A DNA stretch of 64,000 nt, from NCBI RefSeq assembly GCF_029227855.1, contig NZ_CP074357.1, one strand, 5' to 3'. Shown here piece by piece: positions 30,001 to 39,000 of the stretch (the first letter of the stretch is position 1; each line of letters opens with the position of its first letter). This DNA comes from Escherichia coli (lineage in GTDB: Bacteria; Pseudomonadota; Gammaproteobacteria; Enterobacterales; Enterobacteriaceae). Position numbers: made by a program.

Positions 30001-33000
30001 TCCATTCACGTCCATTGATATGCAGCCACTCGCCGTCTGATACATCACCCGTCCGGTCATCGCCCTTGAGCTGAACATACGGTTCATCGCGATAATTACC
30101 GAATGCATTACCGAGCGCCTGAATGACCGATTTATACCCGTCCTGAAGCTCAACAAAGGCCCCCAGATCCAGGTCGATTCCTTTGGAGCCGAACATGCCT
30201 GCAAAGCCTGATTTGCCGCTGCCCCGGTGCCAGTTCAGGTTGATCCGGATTTCACCGAAGTTATCCCGTTTGGTCAGGCTGATTGCAGGCTTCTCTTTTG
30301 TCAGCGATACCTTGCTCAGGCTGATTTTTGTCTCAACTGGCGGAGGGGTTACAACCGGAGGAGTCGGGGCTGCGGGAGCCGGTTCGTCGGCAATATTTAC
30401 GCCGAAATGCTCTGCCAGCGGTTTAAGTCCACCGTTGAACCCCTGCGCAACGAAGCGGAATTTCCAGTCATTATTACGACGGTAAAATTCACCCAGAATT
30501 AAGGCTGCTTCCTGACGGCCGCTCAGTTCGACACTGCCGCTAACCAGGCCGGTAGCCCCTTGCTCCACGTCGATGGAAAGATTACGAAGACCGGACACCG
30601 TCTGCCCACCGTCACAGGTCACGGTGAACGCAATTTTCTGGACATCAGGTTTCAGCCGGTTGAGCGCGACAGTAAAGGTTGAGTACTGGCCTTCACTGAC
30701 CAGGCTGACGGTACCATCATCGTTACGTGGCTGACCATAAAACACCATGTCCGCATCACCCTGCACCTTCCCGTCGGCATACAGGCGAAACGCCGAAGCA
30801 TCCACCTGGCCGCCCGAGGTGATCCGGACCCGCAACTCCTGGGCTGGAACGGGGGCATTGCCCCCCGGCGTCAGGTTCATTAGCGAATAACCGCTGAAAC
30901 GATATCGGAGTGCATATCGTCAATTGTGCGGCCGCGACAGGCATGGCCAAGGGCGGTAAAGTCCCAGTTGCCGTTATTACGGCGCAGCGAAGAAATAACG
31001 ATCCCGGTATGTGAGCCCTGCTCAGTCAGCTTGTAGCGAGCCAGCTCTTTGCCGGTTTGATCGACAACGCGGCAGAACGCGTTTTCGACGTCATTGAACG
31101 ACTGACCACGGAAGCTGTTTACCGTAAACGCCAGGTATTCAACGTTTGCAGGCAGTCGGGAGAGGTTGACCTTAATCACCTCATCGTCACCGTCACCCTC
31201 ACCGGTCAGGTTATCGCCACTGTGCACAACAGCGCCGCAGGTGGATTCCAGTTTGCGGAACCAGATGGTGTCAATTGTTTTACCGGTGCTGTCCATTAAT
31301 ACGCAGCCAGCATCGAGATCGATTGAGTCGTTGCCTCCAAACAATCCTCCAAGAAGACCTTTTTTCTTAACCGGATCCCAACCGAGACCGAAATGAAGCT
31401 GGCTTAATGCAGATGATTCTTTGCTGAGTGATACCGTCTGGTTCTTAACTAATGAAACCATGTTTTATTCCTTAAAATGGTAATGACCGAGACAATCAAA
31501 GGTATATTTAGTAACTGACGAAGAAAATCATATCATGATGAAGTTCTCTGACAAGGGAAATTTTGGTAGTTTTCTTCAAAAACACAAAAATAAATCCTTT
31601 TCATGGTGTTCATTTTTCTATTTTTAATTTAAATATCAATACGTTATAAGGCACTAAAAAAAACACTGACGCACTCCATAACCACTGAAGTTATTAATCA
31701 TATTATGATTGACATGTAGCGTAGACACTCATAGACTCACTTCTCAATCATAAATTTGCATGGCGTTCCGGATAATTAAAAAAAATGAACAAGAAAATTT
31801 GGTTTATGGAAGGTTTGTCCTCCCAGCGAGATATTATTCAGGGGGTAAAATCATTTGCACAAAAAAATAATTTTGCTATTACCGTATTTGCCTCCCACCG
31901 TAACGAAAGACATGAAATTCTTTCCGTTGCCGATTATTCTTTGACTGAACCTGAAGATCCTCAAAAACGTCTTCAGTTTATTCAGGAAACCATTCAGACC
32001 TACGGCATCCACCATATTCATACTGGCCGTAACAGCCAGTGGTTTGAAGAACACCGTTCAGCCATTGAATCGACCGGAGCCACCCTTACTACCGGTGCAA
32101 CAGGCGTCGACTGGTTAACTCTGGCTGACGAAAAAGTTACTTTTGCTCAGTTTATGGAGCAAAACGGGCTCCCGGTCGTACCGTCCTGGCGGGTGAATAC
32201 GCTGGCAGAATTAAAGACGCACCTCGCGGCCCCGCCGTTCTCGGACAGCCCGGTATGCGTGAAGCCGGTGACGGGTATCTATGGCATGGGATTCTGGCGC
32301 TTTGATGACAGTGCTTCGCCCATGGCCGTCTTTAATCATCCCGAACATCGTCTGGTCAGTCCGCAACAGTATATTGCAGCAGCATCGGCTTCTGAGTCGT
32401 TTAAACCCCTTGTTTTGATGCCGTACCTGCCAGGCCCGGAATTTTCCGTCGATATCCTCGCGGATAAGGGCGAAATACTCGCAGCCGTGGGACGCCGTAA
32501 GGAAGGGGCTATCCAGTATCTGGTAAACGAAGGAAGCGCCTGGGAACTGGCTTGTGACTGCGCCCGGGTTATGAAGGCCGACGGGCTGGTGAATGTTCAG
32601 ACGCGAAACGATGTGAATGGCAACCCGGTGCTGCTTGAAACCAACATGCGTCCGTCAGGCGGGGTGGGTTATACCCTTCACAGCGGGGTGAACCTTCCCG
32701 GGTTGTTTGCTGCCTTTAAGCTCGGTCTGATGTCTGAAGATGCGGTGATCCAGAGCGCCAGAAATACCTTTTCTCCGGTTGCAGTGAGATCCATCACAGA
32801 TGTCATCGTTTACCCGGAATCACTCTCTAACCATCTGAATTAAGGCGTGTTTATGTCTGATACCCTCGAAGATATGATTTATCGCCGTACCCTCTCATGC
32901 GGTACGATACAGGTAACCCGCGACCAGGGTGATGTTTCGCTCGATGACCTGTTTGATATCGCTGAAAGACGTAACCCGAAACGCGCCTTTCTGTTTGTCA

Positions 33001-36000: not shown

Positions 36001-39000
36001 GCCCTCAAAAATCTGGAGCACCTGCTGCACGAGCTCAGTAACAGCATGCATAGCCTGGGTAAAAATGACTGGCCTCTGGTGTTCATTCGCCCCCGGCATG
36101 CCGAAATGGGCAGATGGTTAAAAGCGCATTATGATCTTTCCGCTGTCGACGGGTTTGTGTTGCCGAAATTTACCCTCAGTTCGTTAGCTGAATGGTGGGA
36201 TATCATGGGCGGGACTCACCTGTGCATGATGCCAACGCTGGAAACAGAAGACGTCTTTGACGTGGTTCAGATGCGGGAGCTGGCCACCCGTCTGGTGGAA
36301 CATCCCTGCCACGACCGCATTATTGCGCTTCGAATCGGCGGCAACGATCTTATGAACGTTGTGTCGCTTCGCCGTCCCCGGGACCTGACGCTGTATGACA
36401 GCCCGATGGGCTACGTCATCAAAATGCTCGTTTCGGTCTTCGGCCCGCGTGATTTTGCCCTGACCGCGCCCGTATGTGAGCATATTGACGATCATGCCGT
36501 AATGGCCAGAGAGCTGGCTCTTGATATGGCACATGGGCTTGTTGGGAAAACGGCCATTCACCCGGGTCAGATAGAGGTCATTCAAAACGCGCTGATGGTC
36601 ACTCAGGGTGAGCATTCTGACGCTCTGCGGATCCTGAACTCTACCCAGGCCGTGTTTAAGTCGCAGGGAGCAATGTGTGAACCCGCCACACATCGCCGCT
36701 GGGCGGCTGGCATTCTGGACAGAGCTCGTTTTTATGGGTTACAGAACGAGCAAAGCGCTGATGGAATCAGATTACTTACCGTGACCCAGCATCATTAAGG
36801 AAATCATAATGGGGTTCAGATTCAGAAAGTCGATCAACATTATTCCTGGTGTTCGCCTCAACCTGAGTAACGGTGCACCGAGCCTGAGTGTCGGGCCGAG
36901 AGGTGCTTCTGTTTCTTTTGGAAGCCGGGGGACCTATGCCAATCTGGGCTTGCCCGGTACCGGGCTGAGTTACCGTACCCGGCTTGATCGGGCCGCGCGT
37001 TCCGGAGGTGGGAACCGGACGGCTACCGACCCGGGGCTCAGACAGGCGCTTGAGGAGGAAGCCGCTGATCTCATGTCAGCGGTGACCGCAATCCGTAATA
37101 TTCACGAGCTGACGCCGGATCCTAAAACAGGCATCAGCTGGGCAGAGCTGGAAGCAGTATACCTGCATAACAGAACGTCGCCTTTTCAGGTTCCGGCACC
37201 GGTGCGTCCAGAAAAGCCAGACTATCTTGCATTGCCGGAAAAGCCTGCCGAGAGCGAAGGCATTAGTTTTCTGGGTAAATGGTTTGAATCGGAATCAGCT
37301 AAAGCTGAGCGCCACGCCGAAAATCTTCGCCGGTGGCAGCAGGAGCTGATTGATGTGGAGCGTGAGAATACCCTTCGACAGCACCGGTACCAGCAACAAC
37401 GGACGGCCTGGGCCGAACAGTATGCAAACTGGAAGTTTGAGGCTGAAGAACATGAAAAACGGCTCGCCACGGCTCAGGCAGATGCCCGGCAGCAGTTCCG
37501 GACAGACGCCGCGTTTTTCGAATCATACCTGGCGGGTGTGCTGGCAGAAACTGAATGGCCGCGTGAAACGCTTGTTGCATTTGAAGTAAAGCCGGAGCTA
37601 TCAGCAGTCCTGCTGGATGTTGATTTAGCTGAGATTGAAGATTTCCCTGATAAGATTTACGGCGTTAATGCCCGGGGCACGGAGCTGACGGAAAAAGCCA
37701 TGACGCAAAAAGCCGTACGCGAAAACTATGCCCGCCACGTCCATGGCTGCTTGTTCCGCCTGGTCGGTATCGTTTTACATACGCTACCGTTCGACAACGT
37801 GATTGTGTCAGGCTTTACGCAACGGGTCAGTAAGCGGACCGGCTATCTGGAGGATGAGTATATCCTGTCCTGCAAATGCAGTCGCAGCCAGATGTCGTCA
37901 GTAAATTTTGCAGGCTTAGAACACATTGATCCGGTTGAAGCGTTAGGCGATCACCCGGTTATTCGAAAGATGAGCAGTACCTTCATTTTTCAGCCTATTG
38001 AACCACTAACCCTTTAAGCAGGCTAAATCTTACGATGCAATTAAATACCAGACAGGCCCGGATTTTTAAGCTTGCCAACTTACTGGGCACCGGCAAGCCC
38101 GTTTCCGCTGCCGACATTATAACCAGTCTGGAATGCTCAGAGCCGACATTAACCCGGGCACTCAAAGAGCTACGCGAGTCATATTCTGCGGAGATCAAAT
38201 ACAGCAAGGCAGGTCATTCCTACCATCTCGTTAATCCGGGCCAGCTGGATAAAAAGACCCTTCGCCGGATGAATGAAGCGCTCGCACAGAATGCTGAACT
38301 GAAAACCGGTGAGTCCACAGGGAAGGTCGTACTCGATAAGGATAAAAAAACAGCCGTGTCATTATCGCTACGCATGCGGATTTTAAGAAAAATTGACCGT
38401 CTGGCTGCGCTGAGTGGCTCGACCCGAAGTGAAGCGGTAGAGAAGCTGGCTCTGCACTCCGTTGATGAACTGATAAAAGAATACAGCGCTAAAAAGTCCT
38501 GACGCTAAATCTCAGACCGGGGTGAAAACCCCGGTTTTGTCATATTTCACCTCTGTATCTGCGTGACGGAGTTTTGATCTATTCTCCTCCCGCAATGTCA
38601 GCAGCGCCTTTCTGCCTACAAAACCTGGTGTCTTGACATCCTCTTGTGCTACACATCAATCTTTGGGCGATTTACACTCCATTCATGCAGATCTGTGATG
38701 TATGATGATTTTCATACATAAGAAAGTTTATTTTTGCCGGAGTTTTTTTCAGAAATTTATATTCCAGTACGGTCTGAATTTTTTTCTCTGATAAGAGGCC
38801 ATTCACATGTCGGTAATTCAATGGTGGTTAACTTATTTCTTTAATGCCGCTTCTGAGTATTTAATCTCCACCCGACAGATGTCGTGCCGTTTTATCAAAT
38901 CTACAAACTCTGGCCTCTTCCTGAAACTACTCTCCTCTTCCGATCTCTTAAGAAGGAATTACATTTGAGACGCTTACCCGTATATCTGCTACTCGACACG

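Follow-up and report, generated by a model that had tools for sequence, protein, structure and literature searches.

What does the operon that faces terZABCDEF in the ter locus make, and on what does its product act? The ter locus is widespread in pathogens, and plasmids of Salmonella, Enterobacter and Klebsiella often carry it; resistance to tellurite, phages and colicins has been connected with it, as has fitness in the gut. We have analyzed a 64,000-nt stretch of Escherichia coli DNA (contig NZ_CP074357.1 of assembly GCF_029227855.1; hereafter the window), in which positions 31785-38502 are one operon of the IncHI2-type ter locus. The reading that we favor, with a probability of roughly 0.6, is that genes 1-5 of this operon make a soluble nucleoside-like product acting on the Ter complex, and that genes 6 and 7 encode an accessory protein and the regulator TerW. 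The cluster and its predicted role were already published in 2012, and the window brings no new biology: Anantharaman, Iyer and Aravind (2012, Mol Biosyst 8:3142), as summarized by later papers, ascribed a nucleoside-like product to a Ter-linked module. A previous reading of this stretch made from the sequence only had suggested a phosphoribosylated or nucleoside-like small molecule, a proposal that equals the 2012 hypothesis as those papers summarize it and that is supported by our results. The experimental ter literature names just terZABCDEF and terWXY and mostly passes over the six genes between terW and terZ. This enzyme operon is the most tractable route to ter function, because the identity of its product would show what TerD, TerB and TerC respond to.

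The genes of the operon and its terminator are listed below; the gene boundaries are those of the plus-strand open reading frames (ORFs) found here, which match the RefSeq calls on identical IncHI2 plasmids.

31785..32843, + strand: gene 1, a member of the Ter-specific ATP-grasp ligase family (352 amino acids, aa; Pfam ATPgrasp_Ter)
32853..33995, + strand: gene 2, a PRTase_2 phosphoribosyltransferase (PRTase) with a C-terminal TRSP domain (380 aa; Pfam)
33988..34761, + strand: gene 3, a HAD-superfamily phosphatase (257 aa; RefSeq "hypothetical protein"; orthologue of PDB 6CJ0)
34763..35842, + strand: gene 4, StiP (formerly PRTase_1) with a C-terminal PELOTA/L7Ae-like domain (359 aa; RefSeq "cysteine protease StiP")
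35842..36798, + strand: gene 5, a TIM-barrel C-C bond lyase of the CitE/HpcH superfamily (318 aa; RefSeq HpcH/HpaI aldolase/citrate lyase)
36809..38017, + strand: gene 6, a DUF4236 protein (402 aa)
38035..38502, + strand: gene 7, terW, the last gene of the operon, encoding a small DNA-binding regulator (155 aa; RefSeq TerW)
38514..38537, + strand: intrinsic terminator ending the operon (10-bp stem with 6 GC pairs, then a T-run)

The region 31785-38502 is thus occupied by seven tightly packed ORFs on the plus strand, and the seven co-oriented genes with minimal spacers and overlaps described by the sequence-only reading are real. Genes 2 and 3 overlap by 8 nt (ATGAATAA, at 33988/33995) and genes 4 and 5 by 1 nt (TGATG, at 35842), as read from the sequence, and the remaining intergenic gaps are of 1-17 nt. 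The maximal ORF of gene 2 begins at a GTG at 32847. The positions first given for the genes and the terminator were borne out, with corrections of at most 6 nt each to start codons and to the terminator: gene 5 starts at 35842 and not at the TTG at 35839, so that a 1-nt overlap remains, and the clean terminator after terW lies at 38514-38537 and not at 38516-38538. This terminator has a folding energy of -17.9 kcal/mol (z = -4.3 against shuffled sequences), and 0 of 200 shuffles fold as well. Several weak terminator-like sites within the operon were disregarded because their count equals the shuffled expectation. Transcription of the operon probably runs from the promoter-like site at 31709-31737 to the terminator at 38514-38537.

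To judge the catalytic residues, we have aligned diverse homologues of each enzyme (21-41 for genes 1, 2, 3 and 5), and the nearest solved relatives were sought by single-sequence and by profile search against PDB sequences. The single-sequence search found no significant PDB relatives for genes 1, 2, 4, 5 and 7. Five of the products fall, by Pfam, into families set up for the Ter-linked module. The gene 1 product matches the Pfam family ATPgrasp_Ter (PF15632, E = 2.7e-37), shows K117, K160, E219, D223, E285, N287 and R289 invariant, and by profile matches PDB 2pn1 (3.6e-14) and the L-amino-acid ligase 3vot. Gene 2 encodes PRTase_2 (PF15609, 1.5e-63) and TRSP (PF12500, 5e-23) domains. Its phosphoribosyl pyrophosphate (PRPP) loop, LVLIDDEATTGNT, has the type I pattern of a hydrophobic strand, two acidic residues and then T/S-G-x-T, with D162, D163, E164, T167, G168 and T170 invariant in 39 diverse homologues; the gene 2 profile matches UMP synthase/OPRT and PyrR weakly, over the PRPP loop only. 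Among the proteins of the operon the Rossmann-like core fold of type I phosphoribosyltransferases was found as well. The gene 3 product is weak in Pfam, is recognized by the NCBIfam HAD-IIB/MPGP models (3.6e-9), and carries the HAD motifs I-IV (D9xD11, in the sequence DLDDT; T66; K198; G222-D223..D227), all invariant in 41 diverse homologues. The gene 5 product belongs to the Pfam family C-C_Bond_Lyase (PF15617, 9e-114) and has as invariant residues E43, D44, R83, R85, E134, R164 and D169, the acidic and arginine residues being candidates for metal ligands and catalytic residues; its profile matches citrate lyase beta, acyl-CoA lyase and malyl-CoA lyase structures at 1e-16 to 1e-7, with 3qll at 1.1e-16 and the CitE and malyl-CoA lyases at 1e-11 to 1e-7. 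The domain assignments of the sequence-only reading (ATP-grasp, two PRTase-fold proteins, HAD, HpcH-like and DUF4236) agree with these Pfam and NCBIfam matches and invariant motifs, and its PRPP-binding and DLDDT motifs are both present, with their key residues invariant. It had named absent catalytic residues or unrelated housekeeping paralogues as grounds for abandoning the proposal; both were checked, and the residues are present and the genes are not housekeeping paralogues.

The conservation of the gene order was studied in 80 related loci from different species, which are the best 80 of at least 597 StiP-pattern matches; because the sample was seeded with a StiP profile, its frequencies hold for modules with StiP and for no others. 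The sample takes in Gamma-, Beta- and Alphaproteobacteria, a Crocinitomicaceae (Bacteroidota) genome, Desulfovibrio, and cyanobacterial or Obscuribacterales genomes. The PRTase_2, HAD, StiP and lyase genes are consecutive in 73 of the 80 loci, and the first three of them in 77; an ATP-grasp gene is found in 53, and a TerD-family gene lies at most 10 kb away in 71. Five of the seven genes are a conserved enzyme core. Natural fusions link the same partners: in a set of 150 StiP sequences, each representing a cluster at 50% identity, there are seven HAD-StiP fusions, about 25 PRTase_2/TRSP-StiP fusions, an ATP-grasp-PRTase_2-StiP fusion (P0340) and a StiP-lyase fusion (P0382), and none to DUF4236 or to TerW. 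In most Pseudomonas loci (L018-L044) a TerD-family gene is inserted between the ATP-grasp and PRTase_2 genes.

This neighborhood also bears on the idea that the module modifies a macromolecule (RNA, polysaccharide or protein), with a PRTase-fold enzyme moving ribose-5-phosphate from PRPP to the polymer, the PELOTA/L7Ae-like domain recognizing RNA and the HAD enzyme then dephosphorylating. We consider this unlikely, since the conserved neighborhood holds no glycan-assembly, export or RNA-processing genes, the ATP-grasp and CitE-like enzymes suit small-molecule tailoring better, and the PELOTA fold may merely bind a ribose-phosphate moiety.

A reduced version of the module is carried by the Acinetobacter jumbo phage vB_AbaM_ME3 (L085, 202145-217206), whose Ter set was noted earlier (PMC7824862). 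It encodes a vWA protein, a membrane protein, TerD, PRTase_2, HAD and a StiP-like PRTase, without the lyase and the ATP-grasp enzyme, suggesting that the minimal core is PRTase-HAD-PRTase and that the lyase and the ATP-grasp ligase are later additions. A phage origin of the enzymes was rejected, since the PHROGs collection gave no match for genes 1-5 or gene 7.

The presence of the core in a jumbo phage, together with the phage inhibition and colicin resistance reported for the IncHI2 ter locus, invites an anti-phage explanation, in which the PRTases would be effectors acting on the nucleotide pool, depleting PRPP or bases or making toxic nucleotides, and would so account for the phage inhibition by ter. 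PRTase effectors are known in defense systems (ShosT and retron-type ones have been reported), and PADLOC 2.0 gives a weak match of PRTase_2 to PRTase_III-A (E = 8.5e-4). The PADLOC matches, however, span only the PRPP loop of about 60 residues and are near noise, as is that of a helix-turn-helix (HTH) of a WYL model to TerW (4e-5), and no other gene matches a defense model; a known defense system was rejected on this ground. Moreover, the obligate pairing and fusion of the PRTases with a phosphatase, a ligase and a lyase argues for a multistep pathway and not for a single toxic activity, and the anti-phage explanation appears improbable to us.

The second PRTase-fold protein, that of gene 4, bears a different name in the databases. 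It matches the Pfam family StiP (formerly PRTase_1; 4.9e-89) and PELOTA_1 (4.6e-25), and RefSeq and Pfam label it "cysteine protease StiP". In 93 diverse homologues S97, R100-A-G102-x-P104 and F152-V-D154-G-W-T-G-K159-G are invariant, and these residues belong to the strand-loop-helix elements from which the pyrophosphate and PRPP sites of PRTases are built. This supports the claim of two PRTase-fold proteins, with the caveat that the loop of gene 4 has a single acid. If gene 4 encoded instead a cysteine protease that processes Ter or stress proteins, an H227-G-C229 motif common among its homologues could be cited for it, as well as the study of the Acinetobacter baylyi orthologue from which the name stems and which is cited as reporting a protease. 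That orthologue is 51% identical to gene 4 and lies in an equivalent module, with the order TerD-ATP-grasp-PRTase-HAD-StiP-lyase (L043); it is described as a protease, whereas the fold and the conservation pattern found here support no such role. No cysteine is invariant among the 93 homologues, the best, C229, being present in 67 and the others in at most 31, and no known protease fold appeared for gene 4. The protease explanation can therefore scarcely hold: with the invariant residues mapping to the PRPP and pyrophosphate loops and no invariant cysteine, the database name is probably wrong.

The HAD phosphatase of gene 3 also has a solved relative with another name. Its family profile matches PDB 6CJ0, 6D3V and 6D3W, all "trehalose phosphatase", at 3e-101 over the full length, and the 6CJ0 sequence shares 36.4% identity with the HAD protein of the window (E = 2e-49). 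The 6CJ0 sequence is 99.6% identical to the HAD protein of a Pseudomonas ter module (L020, 7029-7784). On the Pseudomonas aeruginosa plasmid CP109686.1 the "trehalose phosphatase" gene (L084, 8001-8759) is flanked, within a ter module, by the PRTase and StiP genes, in the order ATP-grasp ... PRTase-"trehalose phosphatase"-StiP-HpcH-HAD-IB-TerD ... TerB-TerC-TerD. By sequence and gene order, the crystallized P. aeruginosa enzyme is an orthologue of the ter-module HAD phosphatase, full length and set in a ter module. The difference is that it has been assigned to trehalose metabolism, the ter context being absent from the accessible papers on it, and that the P. aeruginosa module has an extra HAD-IB hydrolase gene after the lyase gene (L084, 10793-11521). 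Structures of the P. aeruginosa trehalose-6-phosphate phosphatase were reportedly described by Cross and coworkers in 2018. The "trehalose" label recurs in the RefSeq-style annotation of some Pseudomonas plasmids.

Gene 3 could then be a true trehalose-6-phosphate phosphatase, and the cluster would serve sugar-phosphate or compatible-solute stress metabolism. The 6CJ0 protein, deposited as "trehalose phosphatase", has been employed as a trehalose-6-phosphate phosphatase in enzyme assays, and the HAD-IIB relatives are sugar-phosphate phosphatases. Nevertheless, the match of gene 3 to Pfam Trehalose_PPase (PF02358) is not significant (E = 0.0088, residues 141-228 only), and no trehalose-6-phosphate synthase is annotated in the locus of the window or near the P. 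aeruginosa orthologue, whose neighbors are PRTases. The HAD gene stands between the two PRTase genes in 77 of the 80 loci, and it is fused to StiP in at least seven representative clusters. Trehalose-6-phosphate is, like a nucleotide, a phospho-sugar substituted at C1, so that the activity of the HAD enzyme on it might be a promiscuous side reaction, the real substrate being a 5'-phosphoribosyl compound. We regard this explanation as very improbable, and the trehalose label may misstate the physiological substrate of the ter-module HAD phosphatase.

Gene 6, outside the conserved enzyme core, is a variable part of the module. The DUF4236 match is confined to residues 3-56 of its product, which starts with a beta-meander, continues with a coiled coil of about 70 residues and ends in an alpha/beta domain. 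Homologues were found in 7 of the 80 loci, at varying positions, and are missing from several close Enterobacterales relatives, where the lyase gene directly precedes terW. In Psychromonas ingrahamii a DUF4236 homologue lies between TerD genes, without enzyme genes nearby, and a Truepera contig has one without ter context. The N-terminal domain (about 60 residues, window 36809-36980) matches nine PHROG phage families of unknown function and, judging from these matches, looks like a mobile module joined to many different C-terminal regions. We read the DUF4236 protein as a non-enzymatic accessory, possibly associated with TerD.

The control of the operon was studied in the spacer that separates it from terZ, where the features are the following.

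25242..31461, - strand: terZABCDEF, the divergent partner operon (annotation of an identical plasmid)
31462..31784, no strand: divergent control region from terZ to the ATP-grasp gene (323 bp, 30% GC)
31527..31539, no strand: palindrome ATCATATCATGAT, putative TerW operator 1, covering the -10 hexamer of the terZ-side promoter-like site
31527..31554, - strand: sigma-70-like site toward terZ (TTGTCA, 16 nt, TATGAT, TG extension; 10/12 consensus matches)
31697..31709, no strand: palindrome ATCATATTATGAT, putative TerW operator 2, abutting the operon promoter-like site with a 1-nt overlap with its -35
31709..31737, + strand: sigma-70-like site for the seven-gene operon (TTGACA, 17 nt, TAGACT; 10/12; about 48 nt upstream of the ATG at 31785)

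The 323-bp AT-rich spacer divergent from terZ thus exists as described before, with 30% GC against 53% in the seven-gene cluster. The exact palindrome ATCAT-N3-ATGAT occurs twice in the 64-kb window, both times in this spacer, against 0.15 occurrences expected. It is present in all 11 of the TerW-encoding loci and in L012, and in none of the other 68 loci; 9 of these 12 motif-bearing loci have it at two positions relative to the first module gene, about -88 and about -255, and the other three at one of the two. TerW, which shows weak HTH matches at residues 3-65 and has been reported as a ter regulator, was found in 11 of the 80 loci, all from Enterobacterales, and is a regulator specific to this lineage. 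PMC7843439, citing Valkovicova et al. (2011), describes a TerW-protected region and a conserved palindrome in the spacer. Both ATCAT-N3-ATGAT sites, overlapping the divergent promoters, are putative binding sites of TerW. Since terW closes the operon, its product would govern both this operon and terZABCDEF, and would do so by repression, to judge from the operator positions and from PMC7843439. The two palindromes, which overlap promoter-like hexamers and go together with terW in different species, therefore support the proposal of co-regulated divergent promoters.

Other regulatory elements were discarded. No Rfam family matched in the control region (search of 24000-46000, E <= 0.1), and the predicted leaders are of just about 40-60 nt, so that a riboswitch or other RNA element in the spacer or the leaders was rejected. 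The literature predicts a third TerW site before terY1; one-mismatch matches to the palindrome are no commoner than chance, none lies in the ter locus, and a third site upstream of terY was likewise rejected. Past the terW terminator and upstream of terY/terX, an inverted repeat ATGTATGA..TCATACAT (38690-38725), unlike ATCAT-N3-ATGAT, was seen by eye.

From the gene structure, families, catalytic motifs, folds, synteny, fusions and co-occurrence of operators with terW, all shown in this analysis, we infer a chemistry and its order, an acceptor and a target. PRTase_2-TRSP, StiP/PRTase_1-PELOTA or both would transfer ribose-5-phosphate from PRPP to an acceptor, possibly pyrimidine-like or a carboxylated heterocycle, and the HAD phosphatase would then yield a riboside by taking off the 5'-phosphate. 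The ATP-grasp ligase might form an amide or ester bond to a carboxylate, and the CitE-like TIM-barrel lyase might make or trim the carboxylic-acid unit. The soluble nucleoside-like product would act on the divergently encoded TerD/TerB/TerC complex, with the DUF4236 protein as a putative non-catalytic coiled-coil accessory linked to TerD proteins. TerW, bound to two operators overlapping both divergent promoters, would exert the joint control, including that of its own operon.

Several observations weigh against this pathway. CitE-type lyases normally use coenzyme A (CoA) thioesters, and the operon has no CoA-handling gene beside the CitE-like lyase. The PRPP loop of gene 4, FVDGWTGKG, retains one of the two canonical acidic residues (D154), the motif being present in part, and the A. 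baylyi orthologue has been reported as a protease. The sole assayed orthologue of gene 3 is reported, in its PDB name and in the literature, as a trehalose-6-phosphate phosphatase. The literature searches found no experimentally identified product of the module, and terZ-F alone suffices for tellurite resistance, so that the phenotype after which the locus is named does not require the module. Finally, the sigma-70-like sites are consensus matches in a region whose total is no higher than in shuffles. Even so, the macromolecule, anti-phage and trehalose alternatives are less likely than the riboside model.

A more precise form of the nucleoside-like reading, which we put forward tentatively and at somewhat less than even odds, would make the Ter-complex ligand a dephosphorylated ribofuranosyl conjugate built from PRPP, maybe with no canonical base; 6CJ0 would be the pathway phosphatase acting on a 5'-phosphoribosyl intermediate, and StiP a misnamed phosphoribosyltransferase. 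If this were true, the P. aeruginosa "trehalose-6-phosphate phosphatase", pursued as a drug target, would belong to the ter pathway. In practical terms, two database names, "cysteine protease StiP" and "trehalose phosphatase", emerge from the analysis as probably misleading; the existing 6CJ0 crystal structure is usable for substrate tests; and a five-gene core, mutable catalytic residues and two candidate TerW operators are now defined.

The locus itself is far from rare. Many IncHI2 plasmids of E. coli, Salmonella, Enterobacter and Shigella carry the 7.2 kb around the operon with 100% identity. Of 5426 complete E. coli genomes, 956 (about 18%) have the locus, which sits in the chromosome at 698 places and on a plasmid at 287; it also occurs in 1347 plasmid records. 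Elsewhere in the window, terF (25242-26483) encodes a 413-aa vWA-domain protein that also matched TerD-family ORFs of other loci in the phmmer screen, which suggests that TerF holds a TerD-like segment besides its vWA domain. The GC content along the 64 kb is uneven (60-65% at 1-2000, 62% at 12001-13000 and 33-39% at 55-61 kb), as would fit a mosaic plasmid backbone into which elements have been inserted.

Among known systems, the type I salvage and de novo PRTases (HPRT, OPRT, UPRT and PyrR) share with the proteins studied here the fold and the PRPP-binding loop. They differ in that sequence similarity is marginal and restricted to the loop (E about 0.01), that the TRSP and PELOTA domains are missing from these housekeeping enzymes, and that the genes here are accessory and mobile. 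The PRPP-dependent ribofuranosyltransferase-phosphatase pairs of polysaccharide synthesis (PDB 7shg; Bcs3, 8a0c) have glycan acceptors and belong to capsule or O-antigen loci, genes of which are absent here. No difference was found from the ter locus of IncHI2 plasmids (R478 type), pKL53-L and the E. coli and Klebsiella ter islands, and many IncHI2 plasmids are 100% identical. The closest parallel is the Ter-associated biosynthetic module of Anantharaman et al. (2012), which has all five enzyme families in a conserved order adjoining TerD/TerB/TerC genes, and for which the same hypothesis of a nucleoside-like product was put forward. The enzyme core does not differ from it, and the copy studied here adds the DUF4236 gene and terW within the same operon.

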